64,000 nt of DNA from an uncultured bacterium (GCA_964387845.1 CAYLXA010000009.1:32001-96000), one strand, 5' to 3'. Counted from the stretch's first letter, positions 1 through 64,000 are shown. A program made the numbers and translations. The notes: generated by a model from the sequence alone, not told the origin.

Positions 1-3000
1 TTGGACCGTACCGCAGCTCTTTTAAAAGGTTGCCCTTGTACAATTTGAGCCGTACAAATTCACCAAAAGTTAAATCTTGAACAAACTCTTTCATCTTGAT
101 ACGGATATCAGGATCGTCACTGAAAAAATAAATTCCTTCCAAAACCGCAAGCGGCTCCGGATAGAAAACGCTTTCACGCTTGTACATTTCAAACATCCTG
201 TCTCTTGCTTGGCCATATTGCTGCGCGCTCAGCAATGGCTCAATAAATCCGCGCCAGTCATCGATAAAGGCCGGCGCTTGTTTTTTGATGTTTTCAGAAA
301 CTGACCCACGCAAGCGCGAATCTATGGTGTTGTAGAACGCATCCTTGTTCGAAAACGAATAACCGGCGCCGATTGTATTCAAAAATAATGCGAGATAAGT
401 CAATACGAAGGAAGTGGCGGATGTAAACCGGCCGGAGCGCGGGGTTTTTCGGAATGTTTTGATTAAATAGAAGCCGGATGAAGCGACGCCGACCGCAATG
501 GCCGTCACAACGGCTTTAAGCCCGAGCGGATAAATGATTAAATAAAATGGGTACGCAAAAAAGAAAGCACCTGAAACCAACGCTGCGCCTGTAATCAGCT
601 TTCGGACCGGAGAACTCGCAAGTTGAGGCGTCCACCACAAATACAGAAGCGGGATTGAAAATACAAAAGGCAGTGTCCATTCCATACCGACTCCGGTAAA
701 CCGGTTGAAGAAATAAAAATCACCGGGCGGCTTCAGGTAATTTTGCGTGTTATGGACCATGCGCCGCCAATTCGTTACGGCCGTCCAGGCAATCACCATT
801 TCCCATAACCGGATCCGGAACCGATACTGGGCCATATTAACTTTGTGGAGGACTTTAGCAGTTAGAATCAGTGATAACATCATCGCGGTATCTGCGATAT
901 GGCCGCCGATGTAATGAAGTGTATAAAAAAACTGCGAAGGCACCATGCCGGGAATTGGGTCTGCGTGAACATGGTCTGAATAACTCCGGAGCCCCATAAA
1001 ACTTGTCCAGGAAGGGTTATTCCAAAATTCCATAATCCGGTCCCAGTAAGGAAGTTCGATCCTGAGATTTTTATAGGTATCAGAAAGGAGAAGCTTGCCG
1101 AAAGCCCAATGACCGACGCCGTGAAAATACATGTCGAGCGGCCGGATCATGGTAATCCAAATCGTAAATGCCAGCGGTGCTTGAACCAAAGTATGCCACC
1201 TGAAATATCTTTTAAATGCAAAGGTTAACTGCTCCAAAAATTTTTCTAATCCTTCCGGAATTTCAACTTCTTTAGCATCCATGCTTGGGACTTCCGGTTC
1301 AGTAGGAATCAGCGGTTCAAGATTGACTGCTTCTGATTTCGGTAAGGGTTTGGCCGGCTTCACGACCTGCCGAAGTTCGCTCCGGGCTTCCGACCGAGAC
1401 TGAATAAAATCTGGAAAAATTTCACTCAGGGTTGATTGCGTAAAATCTTGCGGATTGGCGTATTTTTCTTGATAAGACCATCGCTCAAATTCAGATCCAA
1501 AAATACTTTCAAGAAATTGACTGTCACGTTCTGCAACCTTCTCCGGCAGAACAGCAATTAAGAATGACGGGTCCGCCAATAACCGTTCGGACATTCGTTT
1601 GTAAATTAATTCATTAATAGCGAATATTTCAAGCTCGCCTTCATCAGTTCCGCGCCAAGGCGACCGAAGGCCCTTTTGATTCCATTCAGAACCATCAATT
1701 GCAAATAACTCACGCAATAATTCTATAATCTCCTCACGCGATATCTTTTGGCCTGTTTCCTTGCCTGTGCTATCGACGGCTTTCAAATTAACAAACATCC
1801 GCGCCATGTAGTAAGGTATCGATTCCTTGCCTTCGCCCGGAAAAATATTTTTTGATATCGTAATATCCGTTGGCCGAAATAAAATTTCAGAATCATGAAG
1901 GCGTGCATCCAGCATGGCAGCCAAACCCCATAACATAAAATCTCTTTCGGTCGCCTGAATTAATTGTCCGGCATAGCGCGGGGTTGATTCTAAAGCTTTC
2001 CACCCCTGAGTTTTAGATTGAGCTACGATGAGCGGGATAAAATGCCTGACAGATTTCACCAGCAACTCATTATCAAGCGCTTGATAATCTGACTTAAATT
2101 TTTCAAAATGCATCCCGAAAAGCCGCAAATGTATCACGAGAGCAAGCCCCCTCACCCACCAAGTCAATAATTGATCGCTCAAAGATCCTCCGGCAAGCTC
2201 GGTAATCTCGTCTTCACTTGCAAACCAGGCAACCGGCTCTGTGATATCTTCATTCAAGAAAACCAGGTGCTGGTTGATACGGCCGTGGACCTGATCCCAA
2301 TTTCGCTTTCTCCAATAGGCCCTTAGTTCGTTCCCAATATTTTTTAAATCATCTTGCCCAAAACTTGGTTCAACCGCCTCGCTCCGCCGCGCTTCTATTT
2401 GAAGCAGTTCGCGTAATTTTTCCCGAAGAAATTCCCAAGATTGCCTTGCATTATCCAATTCATTTCGCCCTGAAAACTGATCTAACCGCTCTAGGACCGC
2501 ATCAAGCCAAATATTTGCGTCAAATCGATCAACAACACCGGGAGCTCTCAGAAGCTCAACGCCTGAATGAATCTGCCGGAGTTCGCTTCGGTAATAATTG
2601 GCAACAGCAGGAGGCAACAACCTCAGATTAATTCGGCCGAAAGACGGCGGTGTCACGGTTGAAGTCGGCTGAAGCGACATGACTTTGGCATAAGTATCAT
2701 CACGGTCAAGTTCGTGAATCCTGGGAATAACCGAAATATAGGAAAGATTGTTTTTGGTGATCAGTTCCTTAAGGCCTTCTTCGTGAAATCCGCCGGTCAC
2801 AAGCACGACCTTTTTATGCTTGTGCCGTTTCATGGTTTCTTTCAGATTTTTGAAAATAATTTTTTCCCGCAGCCGTGCGGTTTTATAGAAACGGAGGGAT
2901 TGCTTGATCAGGGCATCTGGTATCTGGTATCTGGTATCTGGTCTTCGATCAACTAGATACGAGATACTAGATACTAGATACGATGTTTGAATTTTTACGA

Positions 3001-4211
3001 GTTCATCCCGCGTCAATTCCAAATGAAACAGCTTGTTCAGGAGATGAAGGTCTTGAAACGCCCGGAGAATTTCTTTTTCTGCCTCCGTTTTGGCAAGCCG
3101 GCCGAGAAGCCGATCCGTAAGCTGCTCGATTTCGCCAAACAGAGCAGCTGCGTTCAGTTCCTGCGTGAGAATAATCCGGCCAAGCTCTTTCGATACTGCC
3201 GGAAAATCTTTAAAAGAAAATCCTTTGGCATGTGCTTTTGCATAAAAGGACTCCAGAAAGGCCCGTATCTGGTATCTAGTATCTGGTATCTCGCGGGCAG
3301 AGAGAAACTGATCAAATGATGCAATGAATGATTCAAAGTGATTCGCCTTGAGCCATTCAAAAAGCTTTGCTTTTTCACTAGATACTAGATACGAGATACT
3401 AGATACATCTTTTTCGAGTTCTTTGAGCTTAAAAAAGCGAACCAACTGCGGAAAATCGATTTGATGAATAGGGTCTGTAAGGTCAAGATCAAGATGCTGC
3501 TTTGAAAATTCCGAAAGCACGTTCAGGTGCGATAGCAACTCGCGCTTATCATCCTGAAAAAGAAAATAATCCTTCGTAAATTTGTAAAGCGCAGGATTGA
3601 AAACAAGGGATGCCTTTTTGGATAATTCTAATTTTTCTGTGCTGACCCACTCCTCGGCTTCATCCAGATGCCGGTACACTTTCCGGAACTGCGCCAGGTT
3701 GCGTTTGTAAACGCCGAGACTCTCGCTTCCGAATCCGGAGTAATCGTTTGACAATAGAAGAAGCTCCGGACCGCCGATCAAACCTTTCTCCAAGAGCTTT
3801 CGATTGATTTTGTTGTTCTGTTCTTCGTTCTCTGTGAAACGTAAAAGATTGTTTGGAATGTTGCCGGCAAGGCCGCCCTCCAAATACAACGTGTCGACTT
3901 TGTATTCCTTCTTGAGATGTTGAAGAATTTTTTGAATATTCTCTTGAGCGCCCAATTCACTGTGAGCGTCTTGGATGTGGATGACCAGCGGTAAGTCGTA
4001 AGTGGTAAGTGGTAAGTTTTGACCACCTGAAATAATCTCTTTTACTTCACCGAATTCTTCGGGAATGTGGAAAGAAACGGGCGGATTGAGTTCGACGCCT
4101 TGCGCGTAAGCAAGCGTGGAATTTAGCGTGAAAGCGATCAGCACAAACACACTAATCGCCTTGAGTATTAACAGATTCGGTTTTTTTATCGATATATTCG
4201 GTTGGTTCAAG
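1..4211 (-). CDS. Giant multidomain gene whose 3' end lies beyond the window start. It has a signal-peptide-like leader, a TraB/GumN/Tiki-like domain (GxxH motifs IQDAHSE and VTGGFHEEG) that is paralogous to the 524-aa gene at 49773..51347, two RSELR-delimited modules, and a C-terminal polytopic membrane domain containing HGVGHWAF. The start is tentatively TTG at 4209..4211.
   Basis: I translated the minus strand by hand: one frame is stop-free from 4211 to position 1. It is missing from the ORF track because no stop occurs inside the window. N-terminus: NQPNISIKKPNLLILKAISVFVLIAFTLNSTLAYAQG. RSELR is encoded at 2576..2590 and 1371..1385. Confidence 0.7.
2915..2985. repeat. In-frame palindromic heptamer element (GGTATCT/AGATACT type) inside the truncated giant gene.
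   Basis: catctggtatctggtatctggtatctggtcttcgatcaactagatacgagatactagatactagatacgatg. Translates as TSYLVSSISYLVDRRPDTRYQIPDA. Confidence 0.7.
3264..3407. repeat. Split copy of the GGTATCT/AGATACT palindrome. The arms at 3264..3292 and 3377..3407 are separated by 84 nt of coding sequence.
   Basis: gtatctggtatctagtatctggtatctcg ... cactagatactagatacgagatactagatac. Confidence 0.65.
3990..4017. repeat. Single arm of a GTAAGTG-family element embedded in frame near the 5' end of the truncated giant gene.
   Basis: ggtaagtcgtaagtggtaagtggtaagt. Translates as NLPLTTYDLPL inside the TraB-like domain. Confidence 0.65.
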
Positions 4212-4213
4212 AC

Positions 4214-4246
4214 ATAAAAAATAAGCCCTTCCCTCAAGGGCTTATC
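4214..4246 (-). terminator. GC-rich hairpin aagccct-tccctc-aagggctt followed by a U-tract on the minus-strand RNA. It could be an intrinsic terminator after gpsA or a leader structure before the next gene.
   Basis: Perfect 8-bp inverted repeat at 4224..4244, flanked by an A-run at 4216..4222 on the plus strand (U-run on the minus-strand RNA). Confidence 0.5.
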
Positions 4247-4255
4247 GATGTGAAA

Positions 4256-4284
4256 GTATACCTTATTATTAGGTGTAATTCAAG
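4256..4284 (-). promoter_or_regulatory. Candidate sigma70-type promoter, TTGAAT-17 nt-TATACT read on the minus strand, for the downstream giant gene.
   Basis: The plus strand reads agtata at 4256..4261 and attcaa at 4279..4284, with a 17-nt spacer between them. Confidence 0.35.
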
Positions 4285-4331
4285 GCGGGATGAGATATTT
4301 TTACGGATGTAAATCGTTTATTAACATAGAT

Positions 4332-4393
4332 TTAAGTCGTAAGTGGTAAGCTAATCGAGCAACTTAAAACTTACAACTTATCACTTAAAACTT
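4332..4393. repeat. Heptamer-based palindromic intergenic element of the GTAAGTG/CACTTAC family.
   Basis: Left arm taagtcgtaagtggtaag, right arm cttaaaacttacaacttatcacttaaaacttg. Sits between the gpsA stop and the downstream hairpin. Confidence 0.75.
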
Positions 4394-4397
4394 GCCC

Positions 4398-5429
4398 CTA
4401 ACGCTTACCGAGGGAATAGGGCCTTAATTCTTCTTTCGGCTCCCGGTCGAGGAGATCCTGAACGGCTCGAGCAGCGCTCTTGCCTTCAAAGAGGACGTTG
4501 TAAACTTCTTGAATGATCGGCACTTCAACGCGGTAGCGTTTGGCAAGCTCCATCGTCGAGCGCGCGGTTTCGACACCTTCCGCCACCATGTCCATGCCGC
4601 GTAAAATGTCTTCGATTTTTTCGCCTTTACCAAGCTGCTGCCCAACGCGCAAATTACGCCCAAATTCGGAAATACAGGTCGTCACCAAATCGCCGAAGCC
4701 GGCCAAACCGAAAAACGTGTTGGGATTGGCGCCCATTTGAACACCCAAATGCATCATTTCCAAAAGCCCGCGTGCTAGCAGCGCCGATTTGGTGTTGGAC
4801 CCAAATCCCATGCCGTCGCAAATACCGGCTGCAATGGCAATGACGTTCTTCACGGCAGCTGCGAGCTCAACACCGACCACATCGCTCTGAACATAAATCC
4901 GGAAATGATGGTCGCGAAATGTCTGCTGAACTTTCTCGGCCACTTGCTTATCGGGCGACGCCGCCACAACCAGAGTCGGAATGTTGCGGACCACTTCTTC
5001 CGTATGCGACGGGCCCGACAAAACGGCGAGCTTCACATCGCCGAGCACCGACTGGATAATTTGCGAAGGCCGCATGAGTGTTTTTTTCTCAACGCCTTTT
5101 GTCGCGCTGACTAAGATCTTTTTTGATAAATCACAATCGCGCATTTTAAAAAGTACGTTGCGCAAAAACTGCGAAGGAATCACGAGAACAATGTAATCGC
5201 CGAATTCAATGGCCTGATGAATATCGCTGGTGAACTGCAGACGCTCGGGAAGTTTGATTCCGGGCAGGTACTTTGGGTTTTCCCGCTTGGTGCGGAGAAT
5301 TTCGACATATTCTGAAAAAGCGCTCCAAAGCATCACGTCGTGGCCGATGCGTTCGCTGACCATGGCAAGTCCGGTTCCCCAGCCGCCGTCTCCGAGCACT
5401 GTGACTCTTGTTTTACGCTGAATACTCAT
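4398..5429 (-). CDS. gpsA: NAD(P)H-dependent glycerol-3-phosphate dehydrogenase.
   Basis: VTVLGDGGWGTGLA Rossmann motif, NPKYLPG, SGPSHTEEV, GLAGFGDLVTTC and further family motifs along the full length. Confidence 0.9.
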   Translation of the reverse strand: MSIQRKTRVTVLGDGGWGTGLAMVSERIGHDVMLWSAFSEYVEILRTKRENPKYLPGIKLPERLQFTSDIHQAIEFGDYIVLVIPSQFLRNVLFKMRDCDLSKKILVSATKGVEKKTLMRPSQIIQSVLGDVKLAVLSGPSHTEEVVRNIPTLVVAASPDKQVAEKVQQTFRDHHFRIYVQSDVVGVELAAAVKNVIAIAAGICDGMGFGSNTKSALLARGLLEMMHLGVQMGANPNTFFGLAGFGDLVTTCISEFGRNLRVGQQLGKGEKIEDILRGMDMVAEGVETARSTMELAKRYRVEVPIIQEVYNVLFEGKSAARAVQDLLDREPKEELRPYSLGKR

Positions 5430-5474
5430 AGGTTTTGTAGTTTATCAGGCACTTCTCACAGAAGCAATGACGGA

Positions 5475-5750
5475 TTATTGCGAACCTTGGCACTCGGTTT
5501 TACATTTTGGCGCACCGCAGGATTCCTGCTTCGGTGCGCTTTTTTCCGAGTCTGCCTTCTTTTTATAGTCGCTAGAGCGGTAATCCGTTTGATAAAAACC
5601 GCTGCCTTTAAAAATAACGCCGGCGCCGGAACCAATCAAACGCCTTGTTTTTGATTTACATTCCGGGCAGGCCTTGATCGGTTCATCCTTCATCGATTGA
5701 AATTTTTCGAATCGATGGCCCTTTGTACATTCATATTCGTAAGTCGGCAT
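5475..5750 (-). CDS. FmdB-family zinc-ribbon protein.
   Basis: MPTYEYECTKGHRFEKF...CPECKS, the typical FmdB CxxC...CxxC N-terminus. Confidence 0.8.
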   Translation of the reverse strand: MPTYEYECTKGHRFEKFQSMKDEPIKACPECKSKTRRLIGSGAGVIFKGSGFYQTDYRSSDYKKKADSEKSAPKQESCGAPKCKTECQGSQ

Positions 5751-5774
5751 TTTTAAATTAGCGTTAAGGCAAAG

Positions 5775-5840
5775 TTTTAAGTGATAAGTGGTAAGTGCTA
5801 AGTTGTTCGATTAACTTATCACTTACCATTTAAACCTTAC
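5775..5840. repeat. Heptamer-based palindromic intergenic element of the GTAAGTG family.
   Basis: ttttaagtgataagtggtaagtgctaagttg / aacttatcacttaccatttaaaccttac. Confidence 0.75.
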
Positions 5841-5845
5841 GCCTT

Positions 5846-6967
5846 TTATTGGAAACGCTCTCTCCATTTGGTAAAAATACTCTTCCGCGTTGATTCCCCT
5901 CGAACTTTGGCAAATTCTTCGAGCAATTTCTGTTCCTGACCAGACAAACGCTCGGGAACTTCCACCACGATTTTAACCAATTCATCGCCGCGCACGCCGC
6001 CGCGGACATCGGGAAAACCCTTTCCTTTGATCCGCAAAATTTTTCCGGGCTGAGTGCCGGCAGGGATTTTAAGTTTCACTTTGCCGTCCAAAGTCGGTGC
6101 TTCGATTTCGGTTCCAAGCGCGGCCTGCGCCATTGTAATTTTTGCCTCGCAAAGCACGTCGTTGGCGTCGCGCTCAAAAATCTCATGCGGCCTCACTTCG
6201 ATCATAATATAAAGATTGCCGCGCTCGCCGCCCCTTTGCCCGGCTTCGCCTTCGCCGGAAAGTTTGAGTCGAGACCCTGTATCAATCCCGGCTGGAATTT
6301 TCAAATTGAGTTTTCGCGTATGCTGAACGCGGCCGGAGCCTCTGCAATCACGGCATGCTTTTTCGATTCGCTCGCCTTCCCCGCGGCATCTTGGGCAGGT
6401 TTGCCGGATCGAGAAAAAACCCTGCGCAATCCGGACTTCGCCCATTCCTTTGCAATCCGGGCATGTTTTTTTGCTCGAACCGGGTTCTGCGCCGGATCCC
6501 GAGCAATGCGCGCAGGTTTCCATCCGCGGAATTTCAACGGCCATTTCTTTGCCGAACGCAGCCTCTTCAAATGAAATAGAAACTCGATACTCTAAATCAG
6601 AACCACGCCGGCCGCGCCGCGATCCGCCTCGGCTGCGCGATGATCCGCCTCCGAAGAAATCTTCAAAAAGGTCTCCGAAAATATCGCCGAATCCTTCAAA
6701 GTTACTTTCAAAACCGTGAAACCCCTGAAAACCTTGCCCGCCCAGCGAATGGCCGAACTGGTCATACTGCGCGCGTTTTTGTTTATCGCTCAAAACAGCG
6801 TAGGCTTCGGCGGCTTCTTTAAACTTTTCTTCCGCCGTCTTGTCGCCGGGATTCCGGTCCGGATGATATTTAAGCGCCAGCTTCCGGTAGGCTTTCTTAA
6901 TATCATCATCCGAAGCGGTTTTCGATACGCCGATTACTTCGTAGTAGTCTCTTTTGGTTGTAGCCAT
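5846..6967 (-). CDS. dnaJ: Molecular chaperone DnaJ.
   Basis: J domain (DYYEVIGV...[16 protein letters not shown]), G/F-rich region, four CxxCxGxG zinc-finger repeats, C-terminal domains. Confidence 0.95.
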
Positions 6968-6977
6968 ATTTTCCAGT

Positions 6978-7057
6978 CATAAGTGGTAAGTGATAAGTTG
7001 TAAGTAGGAAAAATAACTTACCGTTTCTCACTTAGCACTTACAACTTACCACTTAAA
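6978..7057. repeat. Heptamer-based palindromic intergenic element of the GTAAGTG family.
   Basis: cataagtggtaagtgataagttgtaagtagg / aacttaccgtttctcacttagcacttacaacttaccacttaaaac. Confidence 0.75.
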
Positions 7058-7063
7058 ACTAAA

Positions 7064-7645
7064 TTAAGTTATTTCTTCGATTTTCTCGTCTTCCTGAGCG
7101 GATTTTTGCTTCACGAATACTTTTACCTTTGCAGGCCTCAATAATTTCCCGCTCAACATATAACCCGCGATGACTTCTTCGGCAACCGTGTGGTCGGTTT
7201 CTTTTTCGGAAACAATTTCCTCGATTGCTTCATGCACATTCGGGTCAAACGGTTTTTTCAAAACGTCCATTCGTATCAAGCCTTGCGCTTTCAATACTTC
7301 GGCAAGCTGTTTGCGGATCAATTCAATTCCGCTCCAGACCGCTTTTTGCGCCGGATCATCATTTTGATGCAAAAGCGCGCGTTCGAAATTATCCAACACC
7401 GGCAAAAGCTCGTAAAAGAAACCTTCGAGCGCATATTTGAAATAATCCTCACGCTCTTTTCCAATGCGCTTTTTGGCATTCTCAAAATCCGCTGCCGAAC
7501 GCAACATCTGTTCCTTCAGGTTTTCTAATTCCTGAATTTTTTTGAGCAGATTTTCGTACTCAGCTTTCTGCAGGCGCACTTCGTCGGTTGGTTTTGATTG
7601 ATTCGTTTCCATTTCTTTATTCTCTTTTTCTTTATCTTTATTCAT
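7064..7645 (-). CDS. grpE: Nucleotide exchange factor GrpE. The start is moved to the ATG at 7643..7645; the ORF-track 5' extension from 7696 translates the repeat element.
   Basis: GrpE coiled-coil and C-terminal motifs (DFENAKKRIGKERED...GLIRMDVLKKPFDPNVHEAI). The MVRDKFFLTTYNLPLNT extension is the palindromic element in frame. Confidence 0.9.
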   Translation of the reverse strand: MNKDKEKENKEMETNQSKPTDEVRLQKAEYENLLKKIQELENLKEQMLRSAADFENAKKRIGKEREDYFKYALEGFFYELLPVLDNFERALLHQNDDPAQKAVWSGIELIRKQLAEVLKAQGLIRMDVLKKPFDPNVHEAIEEIVSEKETDHTVAEEVIAGYMLSGKLLRPAKVKVFVKQKSAQEDEKIEEIT

Positions 7646-7650
7646 AGTGT

Positions 7651-7712
7651 TAAGCGGTAAGTTGTAAGTGGTAAGAAAAAACTTATCCCTTACCACCTAT
7701 CACTTAGCACTT
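7651..7712. repeat. Heptamer-based palindromic intergenic element of the GTAAGTG family.
   Basis: taagcggtaagttgtaagtggtaag / cttatcccttaccacctatcacttagcactt. Confidence 0.75.
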
Positions 7713-7714
7713 CT

Positions 7715-8743
7715 TTAAATTAATCTCTCAATCGAATCCGTCAAACGACGCGCCACATGATCCACAAGCGAAATAACTTTCGCATACGGCATGCGCGTCG
7801 GCCCTAAAATTCCCACGGTTCCCAGCAATTGGTTTTGGCAATGGTACGGCGCAAACACGAGTGTACAATCGCGGATTTCCTGAGGCAAATTTTCCTTGCC
7901 GATTCTCACTCGGATTTCACCGGCACGCAGCGGCTCGTTAATCGCCGATCTCAAAGTTTCCTTGGTTTCCAGGACTCTTGAGAGCAAGCGCGCTTTTTCG
8001 GATGCCTGGAATTCCGGCTGGCGCAAAATAAACCTGGATCCGTCGAGCGCTAATTTCCGCTCCTCTTCAATCACAAGCGCACGCTCTGCGATTTGAAGCG
8101 CGATGCGGTACAAAATCGCGGCGGAATCACGAACTTTGAGCAATCGCTCGCTTAAAAACTCCGGAATTTCGCTGAATTTTTTTCCCGAAAGCTCGGAATT
8201 CAGAAAATGATTAAGCCGCGCGACTTCCTCCATCGGAATTTCTTCTTCCATGTCGACCATTTTGTTCTGCACAAATCCGGACGTGGAAGCCCACATCACG
8301 AGCAAATGCGAACGGCCGTACGGAATTAATTCGATCTGTTTGAGAACAAGTTCGTTGAAATCCGGAAACAAAACCCAGCCGGCTTGCTCGGTCATCGATG
8401 ACAACACGCGCGCCGTGCGCTCAACCAGCTCTTCGATGCTTTTCGCCTTTTGGCGATATTCCCACGCAATCAGCGACGTTTCAGCAGCCTGGACGGATTT
8501 TTCTTTGATGAGAGCGTCGACATAAAAACGATACCCCGAATCGGTCGGAACGCGGCCGGCTGAAGTATGCGGATGATTGATGAAGCCAAGTGACTCAAGC
8601 TCCGACATTTCGTTGCGGATGGTCGCAGAGGAAATATCCGTGCTGAAATGTTCCGACACCACTTTTGAGCCCACAGGTTCTGTGGTTTTGGTGTAGAAAT
8701 CTACAATAATGGCTAAAATCTCTTTTTGACGCTCTGATAGCAT
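7715..8743 (-). CDS. hrcA: Heat-inducible transcription repressor HrcA.
   Basis: N-terminal winged helix (MLSERQKEILAIIVDFYTKTTEPVGSKVVSE), full-length HrcA similarity, CIRCE immediately upstream, classic hrcA-grpE-dnaJ order. Confidence 0.9.
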   Translation of the reverse strand: MLSERQKEILAIIVDFYTKTTEPVGSKVVSEHFSTDISSATIRNEMSELESLGFINHPHTSAGRVPTDSGYRFYVDALIKEKSVQAAETSLIAWEYRQKAKSIEELVERTARVLSSMTEQAGWVLFPDFNELVLKQIELIPYGRSHLLVMWASTSGFVQNKMVDMEEEIPMEEVARLNHFLNSELSGKKFSEIPEFLSERLLKVRDSAAILYRIALQIAERALVIEEERKLALDGSRFILRQPEFQASEKARLLSRVLETKETLRSAINEPLRAGEIRVRIGKENLPQEIRDCTLVFAPYHCQNQLLGTVGILGPTRMPYAKVISLVDHVARRLTDSIERLI

Positions 8744-8783
8744 TTATCGTAACTCTTTAATTTTAAACAACTTATAGATAAAT

Positions 8784-8811
8784 TTAGCACTCTATGTAGT
8801 ACGAATGCTAA
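8784..8811. promoter_or_regulatory. CIRCE-like HrcA operator: TTAGCACTC-N10-GAATGCTAA, one mismatch to the consensus half-site and a 10-nt spacer.
   Basis: Inverted repeat read directly from the sequence; it overlaps the promoter upstream of hrcA. Confidence 0.75.
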
Positions 8812-8816
8812 TGGGG

Positions 8817-8844
8817 ATTATAGCAAGGATTAGGAGAATTTCAA
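8817..8844 (-). promoter_or_regulatory. Sigma70-type promoter of the hrcA operon: TTGAAA-16 nt-TATAAT read on the minus strand.
   Basis: The plus strand reads attata at 8817..8822 and tttcaa at 8839..8844. CIRCE follows directly. Confidence 0.6.
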
Positions 8845-8850
8845 GCTTGG

Positions 8851-8926
8851 TTAAGTTGTAAGTGGTAAGTGATAAGTGCTAAGCAATTTGATTAACTTAC
8901 GACTTATCACTTATCACTTACAACTG
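8851..8926. repeat. Heptamer-based palindromic intergenic element of the GTAAGTG family.
   Basis: ttaagttgtaagtggtaagtgataagtgctaag / aacttacgacttatcacttatcacttacaactgaattaa. Confidence 0.75.
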
Positions 8927-8928
8927 AA

Positions 8929-18741: not shown

Positions 18742-18747
18742 GTTTTT

Positions 18748-18810
18748 AGTGATAAGTGATAAGTGGTAAGTGGTAAGCAACTTAAAACTTACCACTTACA
18801 ACTTACGACT
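18748..18810. repeat. Heptamer-based palindromic intergenic element of the GTAAGTG family, between the 5718-aa and 3270-aa genes.
   Basis: tagtgataagtgataagtggtaagtggtaag / acttaccacttacaacttacgact. Confidence 0.75.
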
Positions 18811-18816
18811 GAAAAA

Positions 18817-21800
18817 TTATGCGGCGCGTCCCAATTCGATAACGTTACGCAGTTCCGATCTTAAAGATTCCGCAATTTGAGTAATACCAAACGCATTAAA
18901 CAGCGCCTTGACTTCGCTCCGGCCGACAAACACAACCTGGCTTGCATAACGCTTCAGCATTTCGGCTGACGTTGCGTCACTTTCTTTTGAAGCAATAATC
19001 CTGAAATTCTTGGCACCCAATTTCCGAAGTTCTGAGCGCGCCTGGACAAAATCGCGCACAATCACAAAACGGTCTGAGTTTACATCCGCAACCGCGGCCC
19101 GGATGGCAGTTTCGCTGGCCGGATCAAGCGCAATGAGCGCCGTCGGATCGGCCGAATTTTCTAAAATAATCGGAAGTGCCCATAAGACATCCTCGTTAAT
19201 CAAAAGGCCTTCTGTCAGAATATTACCGACTGCCGTTTCTACCCCGGCGCCATCCTGCGCTTGCATAAATTGACGAATAGCCGCTTGAGGTTCTTCGCTT
19301 CTGGCACGGGTAAACTGCCTCCGGCCTGCTTCGACTTTCGACCTGATTCGTGTAGTAACGGCCGCAGGAATCATGGAAGACGTATCCAACGAGCCAAACG
19401 CAGAGCTCGGAACCGCAGTCAATCGCAATTCGGAACGGGTTTCTAGTTTCTGGTTTTTAGTTTCTGGTTTAAACTTGAAACTAGAGACTAGAGACTCGAA
19501 ACTTTCCTTACGAAGTTCGGAACGCTCCCACTTACCCGTCTTTTCAAGCGTGTGCTGCGCAATTGCGTGTTTAGTTTTAATCAAAGACCCCAGATCAAGT
19601 TCAAATTCCGAGGATGTTAAAGTATATGTACCCGAAAATCTGGATTCCAATTGCTGGATGCGTTCCACACCTTCCAGAACCAAAACTTTTGTCATGTTCA
19701 ACTCATGATCAGACTCAAGCCCGAGATCGATACGATGTTGGGTCCTGTTCACAACCGAAACGAGCGCAAAAAGTTCCGAGACCATTTTCCCGAATGCCAT
19801 AAAATAGCTTTGAACTTCTTTCTTATCTTTGATGGCTTTTGCCCCGCCAAACCGTTCTATAAGTTCTTCGCCGGCTTTTTCAACCAAAGCTGATACGTTC
19901 CAAACAATTTCCCAATCACGCTGAAGCGGGCTTTGGTCTGGAATATCCCAGCCTTGCAGCAATTGACGGTCATTCTTCCACACTTCGGATTCCAAATATT
20001 TGAGTACTGCCGATGCAATAACTTGCGAATAAAGGATTTCGTTGGCGCCTTCAAAAATCGTCATGACACGGGCATCCGCGTTAGTACGGGCGACTTGTTC
20101 TTCAACCATAAACCCCGCACCGCCGCGTTTTTGAACCGCTTCACTTGTCAAACGGTTCAGAACTTCAGAGCCCCACGCCTTCGCGGCCGCAGCTTCAAGC
20201 CCTGGTTCCGAAACACCGCCGTCAAAAAGCCCGGCAAGTGAATAGCTAATAGACTCAAGCGCATAGGTGTAAGCTTCCATGTCTGCAAGCGTTTCCTGAA
20301 CAGCGCCCCAATTGGCGAGCTGCGTACCGAACTGTATGCGATCGAGCGACCAATTTAAAGTTCTTTCAAATGAACGGAGCGCACCGCCCCAGCTTCCGGC
20401 TGCGACCGCCGTACGGCCGTGATTGAGAATCGACATGCCGATTTTATTGCCGTCGCCCAATTGGCCGAGCAGATTTTCCTTCGGAACCCGCGCATTCTCA
20501 AAATACACATCGACAGTCGAAGAACCATGAAGGCCTGTTTTGTGGTAGTCGTTGCTGATGGAAATGCCTGCCGCTTTGCGTGCTTCCGCATCCTTCGGGA
20601 ATTCAACGATAAAAACACTCTTCTCGTTTTCACCCGTCATCGCAAATACGGTCATAACATCCATGAAACGGCCGTTTGTGATAAACGCTTTTTCGCCGGT
20701 AATTTCATAATATTCTTCACCGGTCGTTTCATCTTTTTTGAGCACCGCTTTGGTTTTTAAAACCGATTCGCGGTTTAAGCTGTCTGAACCATGCGCGGTT
20801 TCAGTCAACGCGTAAGCGCCGATCCATTCGCCGGTCGCGAGTTTCGGCAGGTATTTCCGCTTTTGCTCTTCCGTTCCGAATTTCACAATCGGAAGCGTTC
20901 CGACACCGCCATGAACACGAACGAGAGAACCCACCGACGGATTGGCATACCACGCCCACATATCTGCCAGTGTTTTCATAATCTTTTTAAAGTTACCCAA
21001 CCCGTATTCTTCGGGAACTGACATCCCCAGCAAGCCCATCTCTCCTGCCTGCTGCAAAATGCCGCCCTCATCCTCAACTTTGACAGCGCCGCTATCAATC
21101 TTTTCGCTTTCCGGAACTACCGCGCTCTTGAAGAAATTGGCGATGGCTTCATTCATTGCATTGATTTCTTCATGACCGGCTAAATCTTCCGGAAATTGGA
21201 GCGTGCCTTCGGCCACATTGGCGCGGCCATATAATAGGAAGTCGCCGGATTTGGGCGTACTTTCGGCGAACGGTACCAGTGCTTTGTCATTCTGAGGCGC
21301 AGCCGAAGAATCTACGGTCGCAGATCCTTCGCTTCGCTCAGGATGACCGGCTTTTGCCTTATCCAGCACTTCTTTTTCCATCGCGTCCATCATTTTCAGA
21401 GTATTGGCGCGAATCAAAAGAGCGTTCTTTCCATTTCTTGCTTCATAGGTAACGGGAACGATCGGCAGTTTTTCACGCGTGACTTTGATTTTGTCAGCCG
21501 CGGGAGCAATAGCGCGGATGTCAATCACATCGCCCGGACGGATGTCATGATTAAAAGTAGCCAGATCGGTCACATTCAGTAATAAATGACCGGGAACGGC
21601 TTCCGCAGACATCCTGGCCGCTACTTTAATGGCTGCAAGAATATTGACAAGTCTCGGATCATTTGATTCGGCAATCACGCGTACACCGTTTAAATAATCT
21701 TCCGTAACCGTTACGGGCAGAAGGCCGCTTGGATTTTCATTTGGCGATGACGTATCTTGAATGCGCGGGCTTGCAGAATCCGTAAAATCAAATATCTGCT

Positions 21801-48200: not shown

Positions 48201-49771
48201 TTAATTGCTTCGTCATACTCTTCCGGGTTTGTAACATCGCCGAACAACACATCCGTGACGATACCTTCGGTATTTTCAAATGCTTTTAACGTGTTTGCTT
48301 CTCTTAGGCGGGATTTTTCGTTGTAGTCAGCAGCAATTACAACCAACGGATGTTCCTTGAGATGTTTGCCGCGCAAAGTGTTCTGAATAATGTGATCGAC
48401 TGTTAATTTTAAAAGATGCCCGTCGCCTGCGCCCATATCCGCAATTCCGGCAGGCTGGGCTTCAATAGGCGCGTTAAAAATCCGGTCAACCCGCGCAATA
48501 ATATCTTGGATATAAGCTTTATGCGCAAAGCTGCTGCCCCAGATATCCATCACGCGGTCAATGTGGCCGTCCCGGTCAATACCAAGCGGATCCGGATTTC
48601 CAAAAAGCATTTGGTCTAAAACTTTGTAGGATTTTAAATAGGATGTCGTAACGCCATAGCTGCCCACTTTCTTCATAAACGACAGCCCTTTGGGTGTGAG
48701 GCGGACTAGATGACGCTGATGCGGCTGCCGCTCGGCCAGACTATGTATTGCCAACAGGTCGAATGCTGCGTCTATAAAACCGCGCTGAAAGCTTTCGGAA
48801 ATGAGCCCAATATCAAAACTATTGTTTTGAGCTTCTAATTGATTAAAGATTGATTCTCCGACTTGGACAATTTCGCCGTCAACATCGCGATAAACAGGCA
48901 TACCGAGCGCCACCATCGTTGCGCTCATGATGATACCGTCGATTTGAGTCCGTACTTCCTCAATTACCCTGCCCACTACCCTTGAATCATGGTGCCTGAA
49001 TATAGGACTGGATGAGCTTGGCAAACTCCATCCACGCGCACTTTGTTCAACCAATGCCTTATACTGCTTAAGTTCCACGTAGCGCCCGTCTTGGCTTGGT
49101 TGATGAAAATATTCATGAAGCCTTACAACGTCCGCGATTCCTTTAACCGGTGTTTCTAAATAGCCGGCATTTGCAAGCAATGCCGCAATCTGCCCTTTTT
49201 CCGTTAGTGAAAAAACGGTCTGCTGGTCAATGCCCCACATCCTAACCCACCCCTGCAGGGCAAGCGTCCGCATCGCTCCGTAAATGTTGCCTGCATTAAA
49301 TTTTTCTCCATACGATGCAAACCTTGACTCTAAACTGGCTAAACTTAAGGATTCAGGCTGTGTCCAAGACCCGAATTGATAGAAAACACCCGCTTTAGAT
49401 AAATAATGAAGTATGGGAATTGTCATAAGGCCGTTAATGTGCTGGAAGATCAGCGACCGAACTTCGCTTTCGGATACAGGGCCGATATTGGATCTTAATT
49501 CCGACCTGGGATTAAAAAGCGTTTTGACAAACTGGACGGTGATATCCGCGAGCGAATGCTGCTCTAAGATTTTTTCTTCCGGAAGATCAAGTTCTTTTCT
49601 GAGTTCGGAACGGAATGCGGGCACCATATCCGCCGATTCCGGACGCAGCGTAGAATTATATTTCAGCGCCGAGGTCAGGTAAGGAATGTCGGAATAAGCG
49701 ATAGAACTTGTAAATGAAAACGAAACTACAAGCAGTGCAGAAATTAACTTAAGAAAATAATTTTGTTTCAT
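36245..49771 (-). CDS. Giant polyprotein-like gene of about 4508 aa. Modules in order: leader, O-methyltransferase-like module, transmembrane segments, two MeaB/ArgK-type GTPases, methylmalonyl-CoA mutase catalytic and B12-binding domains, a SAM methyltransferase, biotin carboxylase, carboxyltransferase beta then alpha, a P-loop kinase, and the conserved C-terminal domain. Eight exact RSELR motifs plus the KSELR variant. The start is moved to the ATG at 49769..49771.
   Basis: Stop-free frame of 13.5 kb. Leader: [30 protein letters not shown]. The track's GTG start at 49786 would overlap the upstream stop and translates a repeat remnant. Confidence 0.8.
   Translation of the reverse strand: [4508 protein letters not shown]
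36880..37560 (-). other. P-loop kinase module, uridine-kinase/PRK-like.
   Basis: [17 protein letters not shown]. Flanked by RSELR on both sides. Confidence 0.45.
37620..39330 (-). other. Acyl-CoA carboxylase carboxyltransferase beta module, then the alpha module.
   Basis: Beta: [16 protein letters not shown] zinc finger and GGARILEG. Alpha: [25 protein letters not shown] and [13 protein letters not shown]. Confidence 0.7.
39500..40790 (-). other. Biotin carboxylase (ATP-grasp) module.
   Basis: [32 protein letters not shown]. Starts directly after [13 protein letters not shown]. Confidence 0.7.
40830..41830 (-). other. SAM-dependent methyltransferase module.
   Basis: [15 protein letters not shown] motif I. 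Preceded by the KSELR variant. Confidence 0.5.
41850..43950 (-). other. Methylmalonyl-CoA mutase catalytic barrel followed by its B12-binding domain.
   Basis: [18 protein letters not shown] and [14 protein letters not shown]. B12 domain: [32 protein letters not shown]. Confidence 0.7.
44100..45150 (-). other. MeaB/ArgK-type GTPase module 2.
   Basis: [16 protein letters not shown] and [21 protein letters not shown]. Confidence 0.65.
45500..46400 (-). other. MeaB/ArgK-type GTPase module 1 (methylmalonyl-CoA mutase chaperone family).
   Basis: [16 protein letters not shown] P-loop and [20 protein letters not shown]. Confidence 0.65.
47950..49450 (-). other. Class I SAM-dependent O-methyltransferase-like module.
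   Basis: [11 protein letters not shown] SAM-binding motif with an upstream dimerisation-like region. Coordinates are approximate. Confidence 0.5.
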
Positions 49772-49772
49772 C

Positions 49773-51347
49773 TTATCCCTTACCACTGCTTTCGTCAGAT
49801 TCCCCTTTAATGTACCAGCGGCCGTTTTCCCATTTTTCCGTGAGCATGCGGCGGTAAAGTTCGGGGCCTTGGCTGAGGCCGACAGTCGGCGCGATTACGA
49901 CAACGTTAAAGCCAATCCGGTTCAGTTTTCGGATAAGGCGTTCTTTATGGAAACCGCCCGCGATTAAAACGGATTCGGGTTCCCGGTCAGCTTTGATTTT
50001 CTCCGTGAGATTTTCCACGAGCGCCTGGTCGCGCATGTTGGCGATGCGGTAAAAAGATTGAAATTCATCGAGTGTTTCATCCAGTTTCGCCAAATTAGAC
50101 GGTAACGAAATATTTTTTCCCTGCCCGCCGGCCTGCGCATTGAGAAAATTTTTCCATCCTGCGATTTTGAAGCGGTCGCGCTCGTCCATGAAAACCTGAT
50201 ACTGCTCAGGGACGAGCTCCAATTTGACAAGCGATTCCAGAATCACGAGATCGTTTGACATCCGGTAAACCCGCTTCCCTTCCGGTGTTTCCAAAAATGC
50301 GTCTGCAATACGGTCTGTGAGCTTTGCTTTTTCATCGAAAAACGCGAGCGAATCAATCTGATCCTGCTTCCTCAAATACGGAATAGCGCCTTTGACGGAC
50401 GGATACTTATTGGTATCGATCGAATTTTTTTCGGCAAGTTCGATTAATTTTTCGTAAAAATCGGCGCGCTTATTGGCGTCTTTCTCAACGCCGTGTTCCG
50501 TATCCAAAACCGCGCGCAGTTCTTTGGCATCGACGCGGCGCTGCATCTCACGGACCAATTGTGTGCGCTCGTAATCGACTTTTTCGAAATCGGCGGTAGA
50601 TTCCAATTTAATCAAACTGGAAAGCACTTCGACGTTCGGATAATCCGAAATCGAGATATTTTTCTTAGCGGCGAACTGAAAAAGAAGTTTGGCTTCCTGG
50701 TGCAGGTTGTGTTTGGCTGTAAAATCCTCAAGCTGGGTTTCAAATTCTAAAAATTCCTTCGGATAGAGACCGGGCTTGACGGCATTCACCGCAATCCTGA
50801 CCTGTTTGAGCTGGTCTAGCATGTTCTGCATGAGCGGCTCAACTTTGGTAAATGCAATCAGGTTTTCGTCATACAAAACCTGGCTTTCGATTCCCCACAA
50901 GAGCAACGGATAGTCTTCCGTGAAGTTTAAATATTCTTCTCCCGAAATTTTGCCTTCGCGCATCAGTTTGGTGCCGATTTCAACGCGTTTCTCCTTAGGG
51001 CCCACGCGGTATTCCGACAAACTCACATCGCCGATTCCGCCTTCGACCAAAACAAGCCGGATGTCGCGCGCTTTGTGGAGCGACTCGATGATTTTTGCCA
51101 TCGCTTTTTGAGCTTCAAAATTAACGTGTGCGTCTAGGATATAAAAGATATTGAAAGGCTTTGAGCCCGGATGGTATTCCGAAATGCGGCCGGTTTCTTC
51201 GGGAATCTTAATCTGCGCGATATCGGCAGGAAGCGACACTTTGGAGCTTGCTGAGTAAAGTTCAGGGGCGCCTAAAAAACTCAGGGAAGCTATCAGAGCT
51301 AGGCAAATTGCGGTTGTGCGAAAACGTGGAGTGAAAACCATATGCAA
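49773..51347 (-). CDS. TraB/GumN/Tiki-like putative hydrolase or protease with an N-terminal signal peptide. It is paralogous to the N-terminal domain of the truncated giant gene at 1..4211.
   Basis: ILDAHVNFEAQKAM...LVLVEGG and VLIAGGFHKERLIRKL correspond to IQDAHSELGAQENIQ...LYLEGG and VLVTGGFHEEGLKEL in the other gene. It has no RSELR motif. Confidence 0.6.
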   Translation of the reverse strand: MHMVFTPRFRTTAICLALIASLSFLGAPELYSASSKVSLPADIAQIKIPEETGRISEYHPGSKPFNIFYILDAHVNFEAQKAMAKIIESLHKARDIRLVLVEGGIGDVSLSEYRVGPKEKRVEIGTKLMREGKISGEEYLNFTEDYPLLLWGIESQVLYDENLIAFTKVEPLMQNMLDQLKQVRIAVNAVKPGLYPKEFLEFETQLEDFTAKHNLHQEAKLLFQFAAKKNISISDYPNVEVLSSLIKLESTADFEKVDYERTQLVREMQRRVDAKELRAVLDTEHGVEKDANKRADFYEKLIELAEKNSIDTNKYPSVKGAIPYLRKQDQIDSLAFFDEKAKLTDRIADAFLETPEGKRVYRMSNDLVILESLVKLELVPEQYQVFMDERDRFKIAGWKNFLNAQAGGQGKNISLPSNLAKLDETLDEFQSFYRIANMRDQALVENLTEKIKADREPESVLIAGGFHKERLIRKLNRIGFNVVVIAPTVGLSQGPELYRRMLTEKWENGRWYIKGESDESSGKG

Positions 51348-63952: not shown

Positions 63953-64000
63953 CAAACTTAATTGGGGCAGCGAATCCCAAACCCAAACGGGAGCGTAAAC

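Follow-up and report, generated by a model that had tools for sequence, protein, structure and literature searches.

Tandem-heptamer palindromes at gene junctions of an uncultured bacterium as probable relatives of the stems that surround IVP genes

In an uncultured bacterium, palindromes built of GTAAGTG/CACTTAC heptamers lie between the genes of an hrcA-grpE-dnaJ-fmdB-gpsA block and between neighbouring giant genes, raising the question of what class of element they belong to and what they might do in a transcript. An earlier note on the stretch of DNA analysed here (the window, 64,000 nt) had described six of them as REP/BIME-like elements or RNA processing or stability structures that were probably not simple terminators.

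All six palindromes are present and far exceed chance expectation in shuffles and in a period-7 test: the window contains 29 copies of TAAGTNNTAAGT compared to 0.00 expected from 100 shuffles, and nine period-7 arrays were found compared to none of periods 5, 6 or 8-11, which is the excess of tandem 7-nt units (at least two) that typifies heptameric SSRs and STRRs. Element 1 (4332..4393) starts 4 nt past the gpsA stop codon, upstream of a canonical terminator; element 2 (5775..5840) occupies the junction between dnaJ and the fmdB-like gene in an inserted block (5752-5847); element 3 (6978..7057) occupies the grpE/dnaJ junction in a second inserted block (6968-7064); and element 4 (7651..7712), at the hrcA/grpE junction, ends 5 nt ahead of the grpE ATG. 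Element 5 (8851..8926) lies 2 nt past the stop codon of a 3270-aa gene and upstream of the predicted hrcA promoter, its stem spanning 8845-8934, and element 6 (18748..18810), at the junction of the 5718-aa and 3270-aa genes, begins 6 nt past the stop codon and is followed 5 nt on by the next ATG. The elements are compact, the loops measuring 3-12 nt and the inverted arms, 76-91% complementary, 23-39 nt, and they fill the stop-to-start junctions exactly. The claim that every intergenic gap is filled was too broad: the gap between the fmdB-like gene and gpsA (5430-5474) is without an element. The TAAGT arm comes first in 6/6 palindromes of the window and in 13/13 TAAGT palindromes of other genomes (19/19). 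The family is not confined to this locus; restriction to it was a finding that, according to the earlier note, would speak against its proposal.

That the arms can form imperfect RNA hairpins is borne out by folding of the minus-strand RNA, which gave energies of -19 to -40 kcal/mol with z = -2.7 to -10.9 (element 1, -19 kcal/mol, z -2.7; element 2, z -4.7; element 3, -36.2 kcal/mol, z -5.9; element 4, z -5.8; element 5, -40 kcal/mol, z -10.9; element 6, z -8.2). The minimum-free-energy folds contain stems of about 21-39 bp with one mismatch per heptamer; like the stems of intervening sequences (IVS), they are formed by terminal inverted repeats and reach about 20 bp or more. The better-folding strand is the minus strand for three intergenic elements and the plus strand for the other three; this lack of bias towards the transcribed strand can be explained by maintenance at the DNA level at least as readily as by selection on the RNA.

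The five genes from hrcA to gpsA are bracketed by a predicted promoter and a predicted terminator, both outside the element family, with four elements in between. Upstream of hrcA, on the minus strand, a promoter-like site (TTGAAA-16-TATAAT, 11/12; 8844..8817) is followed by a CIRCE-like inverted repeat (the two together at 8786..8844), and after gpsA the unit is ended by an intrinsic terminator with an 11-bp stem and a T-run (4246..4220, minus strand). The latter is the separate hairpin with U-tract reported earlier; it is conserved in the syntenic relative discussed below and is the only canonical terminator in the intergenic spacers of the block. By the criterion of a GC-rich stem followed by a U-tract, the terminator scan called 0/6 elements, and neither the scan nor inspection of the tails found a T/U tail on any of them. 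With no U-tails, and with one promoter-like site and one terminator bracketing four of them, the elements are, on sequence grounds, not plain terminators, in agreement with the earlier note. No rRNA was found in the 64-kb window, and the elements sit between or within protein-coding genes.

Insertion polymorphism in related genomes, which the earlier note had raised, was observed in the syntenic relative L121 (HrcA 82% identical). L121 is without elements 2 and 3 and has an overlapping TAATG stop/start at both junctions, where the window carries inserts of 96 nt (element 2) and 97 nt (element 3) between TAA and ATG. In this comparison of two genomes, the difference may stand for insertion here or for loss in L121. 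When filled and empty sites are set side by side, any duplication is ambiguous and no longer than 2-5 nt (AAT; TAAAA), and no clear target-site duplication was found. At the remaining sites compared, L121 has a palindrome of another heptamer, GTATCT/AGATAC, at the hrcA/grpE junction, a non-heptamer hairpin plus T7 run at the site of element 5 and, 3' of gpsA, where 3-4 units are present in the window, a GTAAGTC hairpin of a single unit (ATGTAAGTC..GACTTACAT) whose loop is similar; thus, unit number is polymorphic between the two genomes.

Four further arrays or palindromes, absent from the earlier note, lie inside ORFs of the window, all on the minus strand. Three are in the large ORF that leaves the window at its left end: a half array of ACTTACC x4 on the coding strand (3990..4017), which encodes ..LPLTTYDLP.. 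and has no stop in any minus-strand frame; a palindrome of GGTATCT/AGATACN heptamers (2915..2983), for which only the ORF's own frame is open on that strand and whose loop, TCTTCGATCAAC, is similar to those of elements 1, 2 and 5, the common motif being TTCGATYA; and a split palindrome (3265..3406), in which a GTATCTN arm (3265-3291) and a NAGATAC arm (3377-3406) surround 85 nt of conserved coding sequence. The homolog P0001 aligns in one frame through all three sites, with a 6-aa gap at the segment carrying the half array; in the L121 ortholog this segment is 8 aa shorter. The fourth, a palindrome of GTTTCTR/YAGAAAC heptamers (19438..19503), lies in the 5718-aa ORF directly past the end of an acyl-CoA dehydrogenase domain. 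In total, the heptamer cores of the window fall into three or more unrelated sequences, with unit numbers that vary.

Stop codons separate the two groups. GTAAGTG arrays contain TAA in every frame of either strand and, therefore, full palindromes of this type occur only between genes, whereas the stop-poor heptamers GGTATCT and GTTTCTG persist in frame within ORFs; we regard it as largely shown that stop-codon content sorts the elements into intergenic and in-ORF ones. The idea that the elements are stop-free and spuriously lengthen ORFs holds for one part of them only: all six whole elements have stops in all six frames, but the CACTTAC-type 3' arm, their only open part, is free of stops in each of the three frames and leads ORF callers to extend the grpE, 3270-aa and 4508-aa genes upstream. 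Of the partial right arm noted earlier at 49769..49787, positions 49773-49787 can be read as a two-unit relic (GGTAAGG GATAAG, minus strand) that forms the final codons and TAA stop of the 524-aa gene. In three of the in-ORF copies, folding of the sense strand is poorer than that of the antisense strand, which sets them apart from the intergenic copies (numbers of G-U pairs in the in-ORF/intergenic strand comparison, 6 vs 16 compared to 17 vs 11; Fisher p = 0.024).

A clue to the class of the elements comes from genes of family PF05635, the family of the 23S-rRNA-intervening-sequence protein (IVP, S23p; 'four helix bundle protein'). L121 contains such a gene (E 1e-36) flanked by inverted CAGTCCA/TGGACTG arrays. 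Heptamer arrays flank 9/9 IVP genes of Omnitrophota reached by synteny or homology and 8/8 picked by tblastn on cyanobacterial and Azospirillum plasmids (17/17 together); they have 3-5 units and cover 24.3% of the sequence within 100 nt of IVP genes compared to 0.68% elsewhere. Four further IVP genes adjoin TAAGT-type arrays like those of the window, three with a complementary ACTTA-type array opposite and one, in L092, with an array on one side only. The heptamers vary between loci and within one genome (GTAAGTG, GGTATCT, GTTTCTA, CAGTCCA), with many unrelated ones across the Omnitrophota loci, and this heptamer-stem architecture encloses IVP genes in Omnitrophota, Cyanobacteria, Azospirillum, Elusimicrobiota and Chloroflexota. 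Although the ORFs of the 64-kb window include no IVP homolog, and hence no PF05635 ORF in a loop, we consider it very probable that its elements are of the same class as the stems around IVP genes. In L146, the arrays are nested as L-L-IVP-L-R-R-R, suggesting that IVP cassettes may land in pre-existing palindromes; alternatively, gene-less palindromes may descend from IVP-bearing ones.

Among the closest known systems is the IVS in helix 45 of the 23S rRNA of Coxiella burnetii, which has a 28-bp stem and tandem GACAGAT heptamers, varying in number by strain, upstream of an S23p ORF, and which is cleaved by RNase III in vitro as mapped by RACE (PMC4990558). In both, terminal inverted repeats pair into a stem that contains tandem heptamers of variable number, and the cargo, a PF05635 gene where present, as in L121, is optional. 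The copies in the window differ in lying in intercistronic mRNA spacers and ORFs rather than in rRNA helices 25 or 45, in having no ORF, in using other heptamers and in being putative RNase III substrates. An ORF-less IVS of about 100 nt was reportedly described in Salmonella by Burgin et al. in 1990 and, with ORF-less IVS known, the PF05635 ORF is an optional feature. The Rickettsia palindromic elements (RPE), said to have been described by Ogata et al. in 2000 as 100-150-bp families with a fixed consensus, likewise lie between genes and in frame within intact ORFs, but they are not made of tandem heptamers and have no IVP association. The RNase III sites of the phage T7 early region are mismatched hairpins between co-transcribed cistrons, at which cleavage parts the mRNAs from one another and leaves a stabilising 3' stem; they are unique sequences with demonstrated processing, whereas the window elements are repeats known from sequence. 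Prokaryotic heptameric SSRs (cyanobacterial STRR, Xanthomonas, Geobacter) resemble the arrays in their tandem heptamers, usually of 3-5 units, in their intergenic enrichment and in unit numbers that differ between relatives; Xanthomonas has 70-75 convergent inverted pairs of GGGAATC arrays per genome (PMC4692102), and the GGACCGG x4 elements of Geobacter metallireducens are found both inside and between genes (PMC2700814). The reports on these arrays treat them as G-quadruplex formers or regulator sites and draw no link to IVP or RNase III-type stems, and the palindromes of the window differ in their compactness and exact fit to the junctions.

We considered whether the elements could be terminators or attenuators lacking a U-tract, through which the expression of successive genes is tuned relative to one another. 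Strong hairpins that start 2-6 nt past stop codons are consistent with this, and just past the 3270-aa gene, where L121 has its hairpin and T7 run and the window has element 5 alone, the palindrome may do the work of a terminator. However, none of the elements has a T/U tail, elements 2-4 are within a heat-shock operon that has one predicted promoter-like site, CIRCE-controlled and located upstream of hrcA, and whose grpE/dnaJ and dnaJ/fmdB junctions overlap in L121, the conserved canonical terminator after element 1 would be redundant, and ORFs tolerate the same architecture; accordingly, we find this model unlikely. The REP/BIME-like label also fits the elements poorly. Dispersed, insertion-polymorphic imperfect palindromes at gene 3' ends are reminiscent of the REP/BIME of enterobacteria and of REPINs, which are dispersed in many copies and act as mRNA 3'-end stabilisers, but those have a conserved palindromic consensus of 20-40 nt and a RAYT partner, whereas the window has variable tandem heptamers of unrelated sequences that are not strictly extragenic, four arrays or palindromes being within ORFs. 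No RAYT gene was found in the 64-kb window, nor an adjacent transposase-like gene in the window or nine related loci; we regard mobilisation by RAYT as highly improbable. A related autonomous transposase element, as for a MITE, was likewise not found; the sole cargo seen between such arms is the IVP gene, and we know of no transposase activity of IVP.

Two other models take the arrays themselves as the relevant unit. They could be DNA or RNA binding sites, i.e. operators or packaging/homing sites, of a repeat-reading protein such as a pentameric IVP/Avd-like four-helix bundle, given that 3-5-unit arrays lie beside every IVP gene examined and that IVP shares homology with the nucleic-acid-binding protein Avd, which is an accessory of diversity-generating retroelements (PMC10053308). 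Yet heptamers differ widely between loci and within one genome while the IVP proteins are 70-100% identical, which makes sequence-specific reading unlikely, and the window has no IVP gene; we hold this model to be very unlikely. Alternatively, the elements are neutral or selfish DNA only, i.e. heptamer microsatellites expanded by slippage, made palindromic by template switching and kept where harmless, with no role in RNA. The balanced folding of intergenic copies, the same-site differences in unit number, the diversity of heptamers, the placement by stop-codon content and the heptamer excess across prokaryotes, the function of which is not known (PMC6344855, PMC4692102), all fit this model. 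It leaves unexplained the association with one gene family in 17/17 cases, the fixed arm order in 19/19 and the poorer sense-strand folding of the three in-ORF copies, and transcribed stems of 20-39 bp would be hard for an RNase III-bearing cell to ignore. We therefore see it as possible but not very likely.

Combining these data, we lean towards the model that the elements are ORF-less, IVS-like heptamer-stem elements whose stems serve as RNase III substrates. At the DNA level they behave as selfish, insertion-polymorphic palindromes, which is largely shown; they insert at, or persist in, the handful of bases that separate a stop codon from the following start, their arms gain and lose heptamer units by slippage, and arm complementarity is probably maintained through intramolecular template switching. 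By analogy, stems within the one transcript that covers hrcA-grpE-dnaJ-fmdB-gpsA, and those separating the giant genes, could be substrates of the double-strand-specific RNase III; cutting there would sever the polycistronic RNA between one cistron and the next, half of the stem remaining as a 3' protection of the upstream fragment, and transcription would not be terminated at the stems. A structure for RNA processing or stability is our best functional guess, and whether RNase III in particular processes the stems is close to an even question, at best. The mismatch at every seventh position could hinder the enzyme.

More tentatively, and with more doubt than confidence, we suggest that heptamer-stem hairpins with or without an IVP gene are one phylum-spanning selfish class that avoids doing harm because RNase III excises its members from host RNA or cleaves them within it. 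If so, the intervening sequences of rRNA would merely be its best-known special case, the excess of intergenic tandem heptamers in prokaryotes would largely be its footprint, and the giant multi-enzyme ORFs of Omnitrophota would carry stop-free versions of it, embedded and translated.

The six GTAAGTG/CACTTAC palindromes of the window lie exactly where the earlier note had placed them: element 1 after gpsA (4332..4393), element 2 between dnaJ and an fmdB-like gene (5775..5840), element 3 between grpE and dnaJ (6978..7057), element 4 between hrcA and grpE (7651..7712), element 5 after the gene for a 3270-aa protein (8851..8926) and element 6 between that gene and the gene for a 5718-aa protein (18748..18810). 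All annotated genes in the window are on the minus strand, and as minus-strand RNA the six elements have predicted folding energies of -19 to -40 kcal/mol (z -2.7 to -10.9), in line with the hairpins that had been proposed. Arm lengths are 23-39 nt, with 76-91% complementarity, and the helices consist of six-pair runs with one mismatch interrupting each heptamer. The core pattern TAAGTNNTAAGT occurs in 29 copies in the window versus 0.00 expected from 100 dinucleotide-preserving shuffles, and a self-similarity scan of the window detected nine arrays at period 7 and none at periods 5, 6, 8, 9, 10 or 11. An Rfam scan of the whole window matched no family. We reject an assembly artefact because the ORFs are intact across the elements, relatives carry analogous elements, and the only other assembly found, the public 33-kb contig Logan SRR15237813_50670, is 100% identical to window positions 1-12967.

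None of the six elements has a T/U tail, as the earlier note had reported, and the canonical terminator that it had recognized after gpsA (4246..4220, minus strand) lies beyond element 1 and is the sole one in the intergenic spacers of the heat-shock block. The best-scoring promoter-like site (8844..8817, minus strand) is located upstream of hrcA, with element 5 on one side and a CIRCE-like repeat on the other. With a single promoter-like site and a single canonical terminator, elements 4, 3, 2 and 1 fall within one predicted hrcA-grpE-dnaJ-fmdB-gpsA transcription unit. The elements do not fill every intergenic gap of the block as had been claimed, the fmdB/gpsA gap (5430-5474) being without one. 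A reading of the elements as CIRCE/HrcA-type operators was discarded, given the separate CIRCE-like repeat and the presence of elements between giant genes unrelated to heat shock. This CIRCE-like operator (TTAGCACTC ... GAATGCTAA; 8786-8813 in the window, about 9922-9949 in the contig L121 of a syntenic relative) has a spacer of 10 nt in both genomes versus the usual 9 nt.

Stop codons explain which heptamer type sits where. Tandem GTAAGTG has a TAA in each of the three frames, its complement in none, so that a full palindrome of this type is closed on both strands and possible only between genes, and a CACTTAC half alone is tolerable within a gene in the sense orientation, as at 3990-4017. 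The idea that the elements are stop-free in one frame has to be revised: each whole element has stops in every one of the six frames, and it is the CACTTAC-type 3' arm alone that is open, in all three frames, which gives rise to the spurious N-termini of ORF lists and of a public gene call. In the identical public contig these extensions into 3' arms affect GrpE (210 aa) and the 3270-aa gene (3288 aa); the fmdB-like gene is omitted there, and an exact look-up of its protein returned no record. GGTATCT and GTTTCTG have no stops on either strand and, using Tandem Repeats Finder and the period scan, we detected palindromes of these types, and a half array, inside ORFs that the earlier note had missed. 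The large minus-strand ORF at the left end of the window harbors a GGTATCT/AGATACN palindrome (2915-2983), a split palindrome with arms 85 nt apart (GTATCTN at 3265-3291, NAGATAC at 3377-3406) and a half array of four ACTTACC units on the coding strand (3990-4017), and the 5718-aa ORF harbors a GTTTCTR/YAGAAAC palindrome (19438-19503) a few codons past the end of an acyl-CoA dehydrogenase domain. In the in-ORF copies, TAG-bearing GTATCTA units alternate with GTATCTC or GTATCTG in such a way that precisely the used frame stays open.

The left-end frame has no stops from 4258 to 1, where it exits the window, and is called as a 6161-aa gene in the identical public contig. Its homologs are proteins from Omnitrophota MAGs. 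The homolog P0001, at 38% identity, can be aligned without a change of frame over residues 12 to 526 of the ORF, a stretch that spans all three element sites, and these elements are therefore translated. The likeness between TRYQIP, encoded by the palindrome at 2915-2983, and TRFRFP in P0001 was considered as a conserved in-ORF site and judged coincidental, as the P0001 DNA is without heptamer arrays. A search for orthologs of the C-terminus of the 5718-aa protein by which its element might be dated yielded none, acyl-CoA dehydrogenases swamping the search. The 4508-aa ORF contains a solo period-7 array (CCCTTAC CCCTTGC CCCTTGC) at 42571-42593 that lacks an inverted partner in its vicinity.

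The giant ORFs have a repeat motif of their own. In the minus-strand ORFs at 8929-18744, 18817-35973, 36245-49771, 51386-59173, 59462-63955 and 2-4192, RSELR occurs 50 times (RSE[LAVIM]R 51 times) versus 0.13 expected from composition. Every synonymous codon for Arg, Ser and Leu occurs in it, which marks it as a motif of the proteins; copies are often located within about 10 residues of a C-terminus (RSELRTSMAA*, RSELRTLRSA*) or near an N-terminus, and it could be a processing or sorting signal. RSELR-coding repeats flanking the palindrome at 19438-19503 were therefore dismissed as a target-site duplication: with 50 occurrences and varied codons they represent the protein motif. The giant ORFs, all on the minus strand, fuse metabolic enzymes of ordinary kinds: the 3270-aa protein (8929-18744) combines PP-binding, PEPCK and triosephosphate isomerase, the 1497-aa protein (59462-63955) has phosphoglucomutase domains, and the 5718-aa protein has a complete acyl-CoA dehydrogenase near its C-terminus (18820-21519).

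Insertion polymorphism, for which a comparison of syntenic regions had been proposed, is evident in L121, a metagenome contig with the same gene order (HrcA 82% identical; nucleotide alignment 74% identical). At grpE/dnaJ and dnaJ/fmdB, blocks of 97 nt (6968-7064) and 96 nt (5752-5847) lie exactly between TAA and ATG in the window and are missing from L121, which has an overlapping TAATG at both junctions. At hrcA/grpE both genomes carry a palindrome, L121 with GTATCT/AGATAC units, the type of the window's in-ORF copies, instead of GTAAGTG. After gpsA, where each arm in the window has three to four units, the hairpin of L121 (ATGTAAGTC-loop-GACTTACAT) has one unit and a similar loop (GATTAG); after the 3270-aa gene L121 has an ordinary hairpin followed by a T7 run in place of element 5; and at the site of the half array its orthologous segment is shorter and non-repetitive. 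These differences imply that the elements are polymorphic between close relatives, change in unit number in place and are replaceable at a fixed junction. Within the window, elements 1 (reverse strand), 2 and 5 have AAGTTGYTCGATTARCTTA in common in their loops, and the GGTATCT-type loop, TCTTCGATCAAC, is similar; this likeness between sequences points to a common descent of at least some copies. Evidence for target-site duplications at the two clean insertions is ambiguous.

The arrays are not confined to this locus. TAAGT arrays are present in at least 120 species-representative genomes and, among the matches listed, in Bacteroidota, Cyanobacteria, Acidobacteriota, Omnitrophota, Poribacteria, Chloroflexota, Patescibacteria and others; further Omnitrophota loci have many other heptamers at gene junctions. 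The TAAGT arm comes first in all six elements of the window and, among the 120 matches listed, in 13 loci with TAAGT followed by ACTTA within 120 nt; the reverse order occurs in none. With this heptamer, the order means that either strand enters the hairpin through an arm with TAA in each of the three frames; selection and common descent are both possible causes. Across about 7000 prokaryotic genomes, no other periodic repeat of the intergenic DNA is reported to be as abundant as tandem heptamers, for whose function there is 'no clear clue' (PMC6344855); Xanthomonas genomes have 70-75 convergent inverted heptamer pairs each (PMC4692102), and Geobacter metallireducens has 49 four-heptamer elements within and between genes (PMC2700814).

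A connection to a protein family emerged from L121 (13039-13520, corresponding to window 5430-5540). In place of the plain 45-nt gap that separates the fmdB-like gene from gpsA in the window, L121 has a 117-aa gene, absent from the window, of the 23S-rRNA-intervening-sequence protein (IVP) family (PF05635/TIGR02436, 'four helix bundle protein'; E 1e-36). On its upstream side are CAGTCCA-type heptamers and on its downstream side TGGACTG-type heptamers, and the two arrays pair in a long-range stem in the predicted fold. The C-terminal tail of the FmdB-like protein of L121 (..SSPQPTVNSPQ..) is formed in part by the upstream arm, and the FmdB-like C-termini of the two genomes consequently differ. 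The family comprises more than 5500 proteins at E < 1e-5, and the best 120 of these are 70-100% identical and mostly from Omnitrophota. Further Omnitrophota IVP genes, chosen by protein identity, are all wedged among co-directional operon genes, e.g. between feoA and feoB, between peptidase A24 and aroC, and in operons for polysaccharides and polyketides. Heptamer arrays flank 9/9 Omnitrophota IVP genes examined, L121 included, and cover 24.3% of bases within 100 nt of the IVP genes versus 0.68% elsewhere in these loci. Four more IVP genes were found among the TAAGT-array loci listed, in other phyla (Elusimicrobiota, Chloroflexota and others); three lie between TAAGT-type and ACTTA-type arrays, and for one, at locus L092, the upstream array alone was seen.

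In an independent sample, tblastn against 72,556 plasmids returned 15 records, 14 of them cyanobacterial; in all eight that were opened the IVP gene has tandem heptamers on both sides, bringing the genes flanked by arrays to 17 of the 17 sampled (nine from Omnitrophota, eight from plasmids). The arrays are inverted in seven of the eight (GTAGGGA/TCCCTAC, GGTGACA/TGTCACC, GGACAGA/TCTGTCC, AAGGGAA/TTCCCTT, GGGTGTA/TACACCC and, in two cases, GGCAGAA/TTCTGCC). The lone exception is a Pseudanabaena galeata plasmid (NZ_CP112875.1, 45977-46915), in which the IVP gene lies between cas6 and cas4 and the arrays are direct, with about 15 copies of AAAAGCT upstream and about 10 of AAAAGCC downstream. At locus L146 (9900-10570), three left-arm and three right-arm CAGTCCA-type modules are nested (left-left-IVP-left-loop-right-right-right), the IVP gene following the second left module and preceding the third. 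One site thus combines, for a single heptamer type, hairpins with an IVP gene and hairpins without a gene. The nesting suggests insertion of IVP cassettes into heptamer palindromes already in place, or else a duplication of arms on insertion.

A similar arrangement is known from the intervening sequence (IVS) in the 23S rRNA of Coxiella, which contains an S23p (PF05635) ORF and a 28-bp terminal stem, has GACAGAT heptamers in tandem on the upstream side of the ORF, three to four of them depending on the strain, and is excised by RNase III with a cut at the start of the first repeat (PMC4990558). The heptamer-stem architecture is common to both systems, but the Coxiella element lies in rRNA whereas those of the window lie in mRNA spacers and ORFs. 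We classify the latter as IVS-like heptamer-stem elements in mRNA spacers and ORFs instead of rRNA. In our literature search, which was incomplete and leaves a description elsewhere possible, the Coxiella paper was the only one to link heptamer arrays to IVP genes, and the link in prokaryotes at large appears to be undescribed in the searchable literature.

Combining these data, the elements are dispersed heptamer-array palindromes that are polymorphic between relatives, lie at stop/start junctions, are sorted by stop-codon content and have the architecture of the stems around IVP genes. The earlier note had taken them for RNA processing or stability structures or REP/BIME-like elements rather than simple terminators. 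The rejection of terminators stands, RNA-structure elements remain the probable reading, and the REP/BIME (REP/RAYT) alternative falls, as the elements are without a conserved REP consensus and have copies inside ORFs. Element 5 may still replace a terminator, given the ordinary hairpin at this site in L121, but terminators or attenuators in general are difficult to reconcile with the absence of U-tracts, the position of the elements within a translationally compact heat-shock operon and the conserved canonical terminator that comes after element 1. Much of the evidence is compatible with purely neutral selfish DNA, which, however, leaves the association with IVP genes and the fixed arm order unexplained. 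Against arrays of protein-binding sites, the heptamers are too variable for sequence-specific reading.

For the IVS-like elements, we suggest that heptamer units would be gained and lost by replication slippage and that the complementarity of the arms would be maintained by intramolecular template switching, which has been described for quasipalindromes in E. coli. By analogy with the IVSs of Coxiella, Leptospira and Salmonella and with the intercistronic sites of phage T7, the transcribed 21-39-bp stems would be substrates of RNase III, and cleavage would separate the cistrons and leave a stabilizing 3' half-stem. Evidence bearing on selection at the RNA level is mixed. The intergenic copies have no bias to better folding on the transcribed strand (3 vs 3). 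In all three in-ORF copies the sense fold is weaker than the antisense fold (-31 vs -41, -50 vs -56 and -20 vs -39 kcal/mol), and G-U pairs number 6 sense vs 16 antisense in the ORF copies and 17 vs 11 in the intergenic copies (Fisher p = 0.024), as would be expected if strong sense-strand stems were selected against in coding RNA (n = 3 elements).

For genome annotation, the open 3' arm means false N-terminal extensions as in the public assembly, and for the operons themselves the insertions turn translationally coupled TAATG junctions into structured spacers of roughly 100 nt. There are thousands of IVP ('four helix bundle') genes, and we know of no role for them. The one case studied by experiment, in Coxiella, is an rRNA IVS that RNase III excises, and gene-less copies of the heptamer-stem architecture occupy junctions of operons and linkers of ORFs in the Omnitrophota genome of the window. 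If the link between heptamer arrays and these genes holds, two unexplained features would share one mechanism, by which a selfish hairpin would be excised or processed at the level of RNA.
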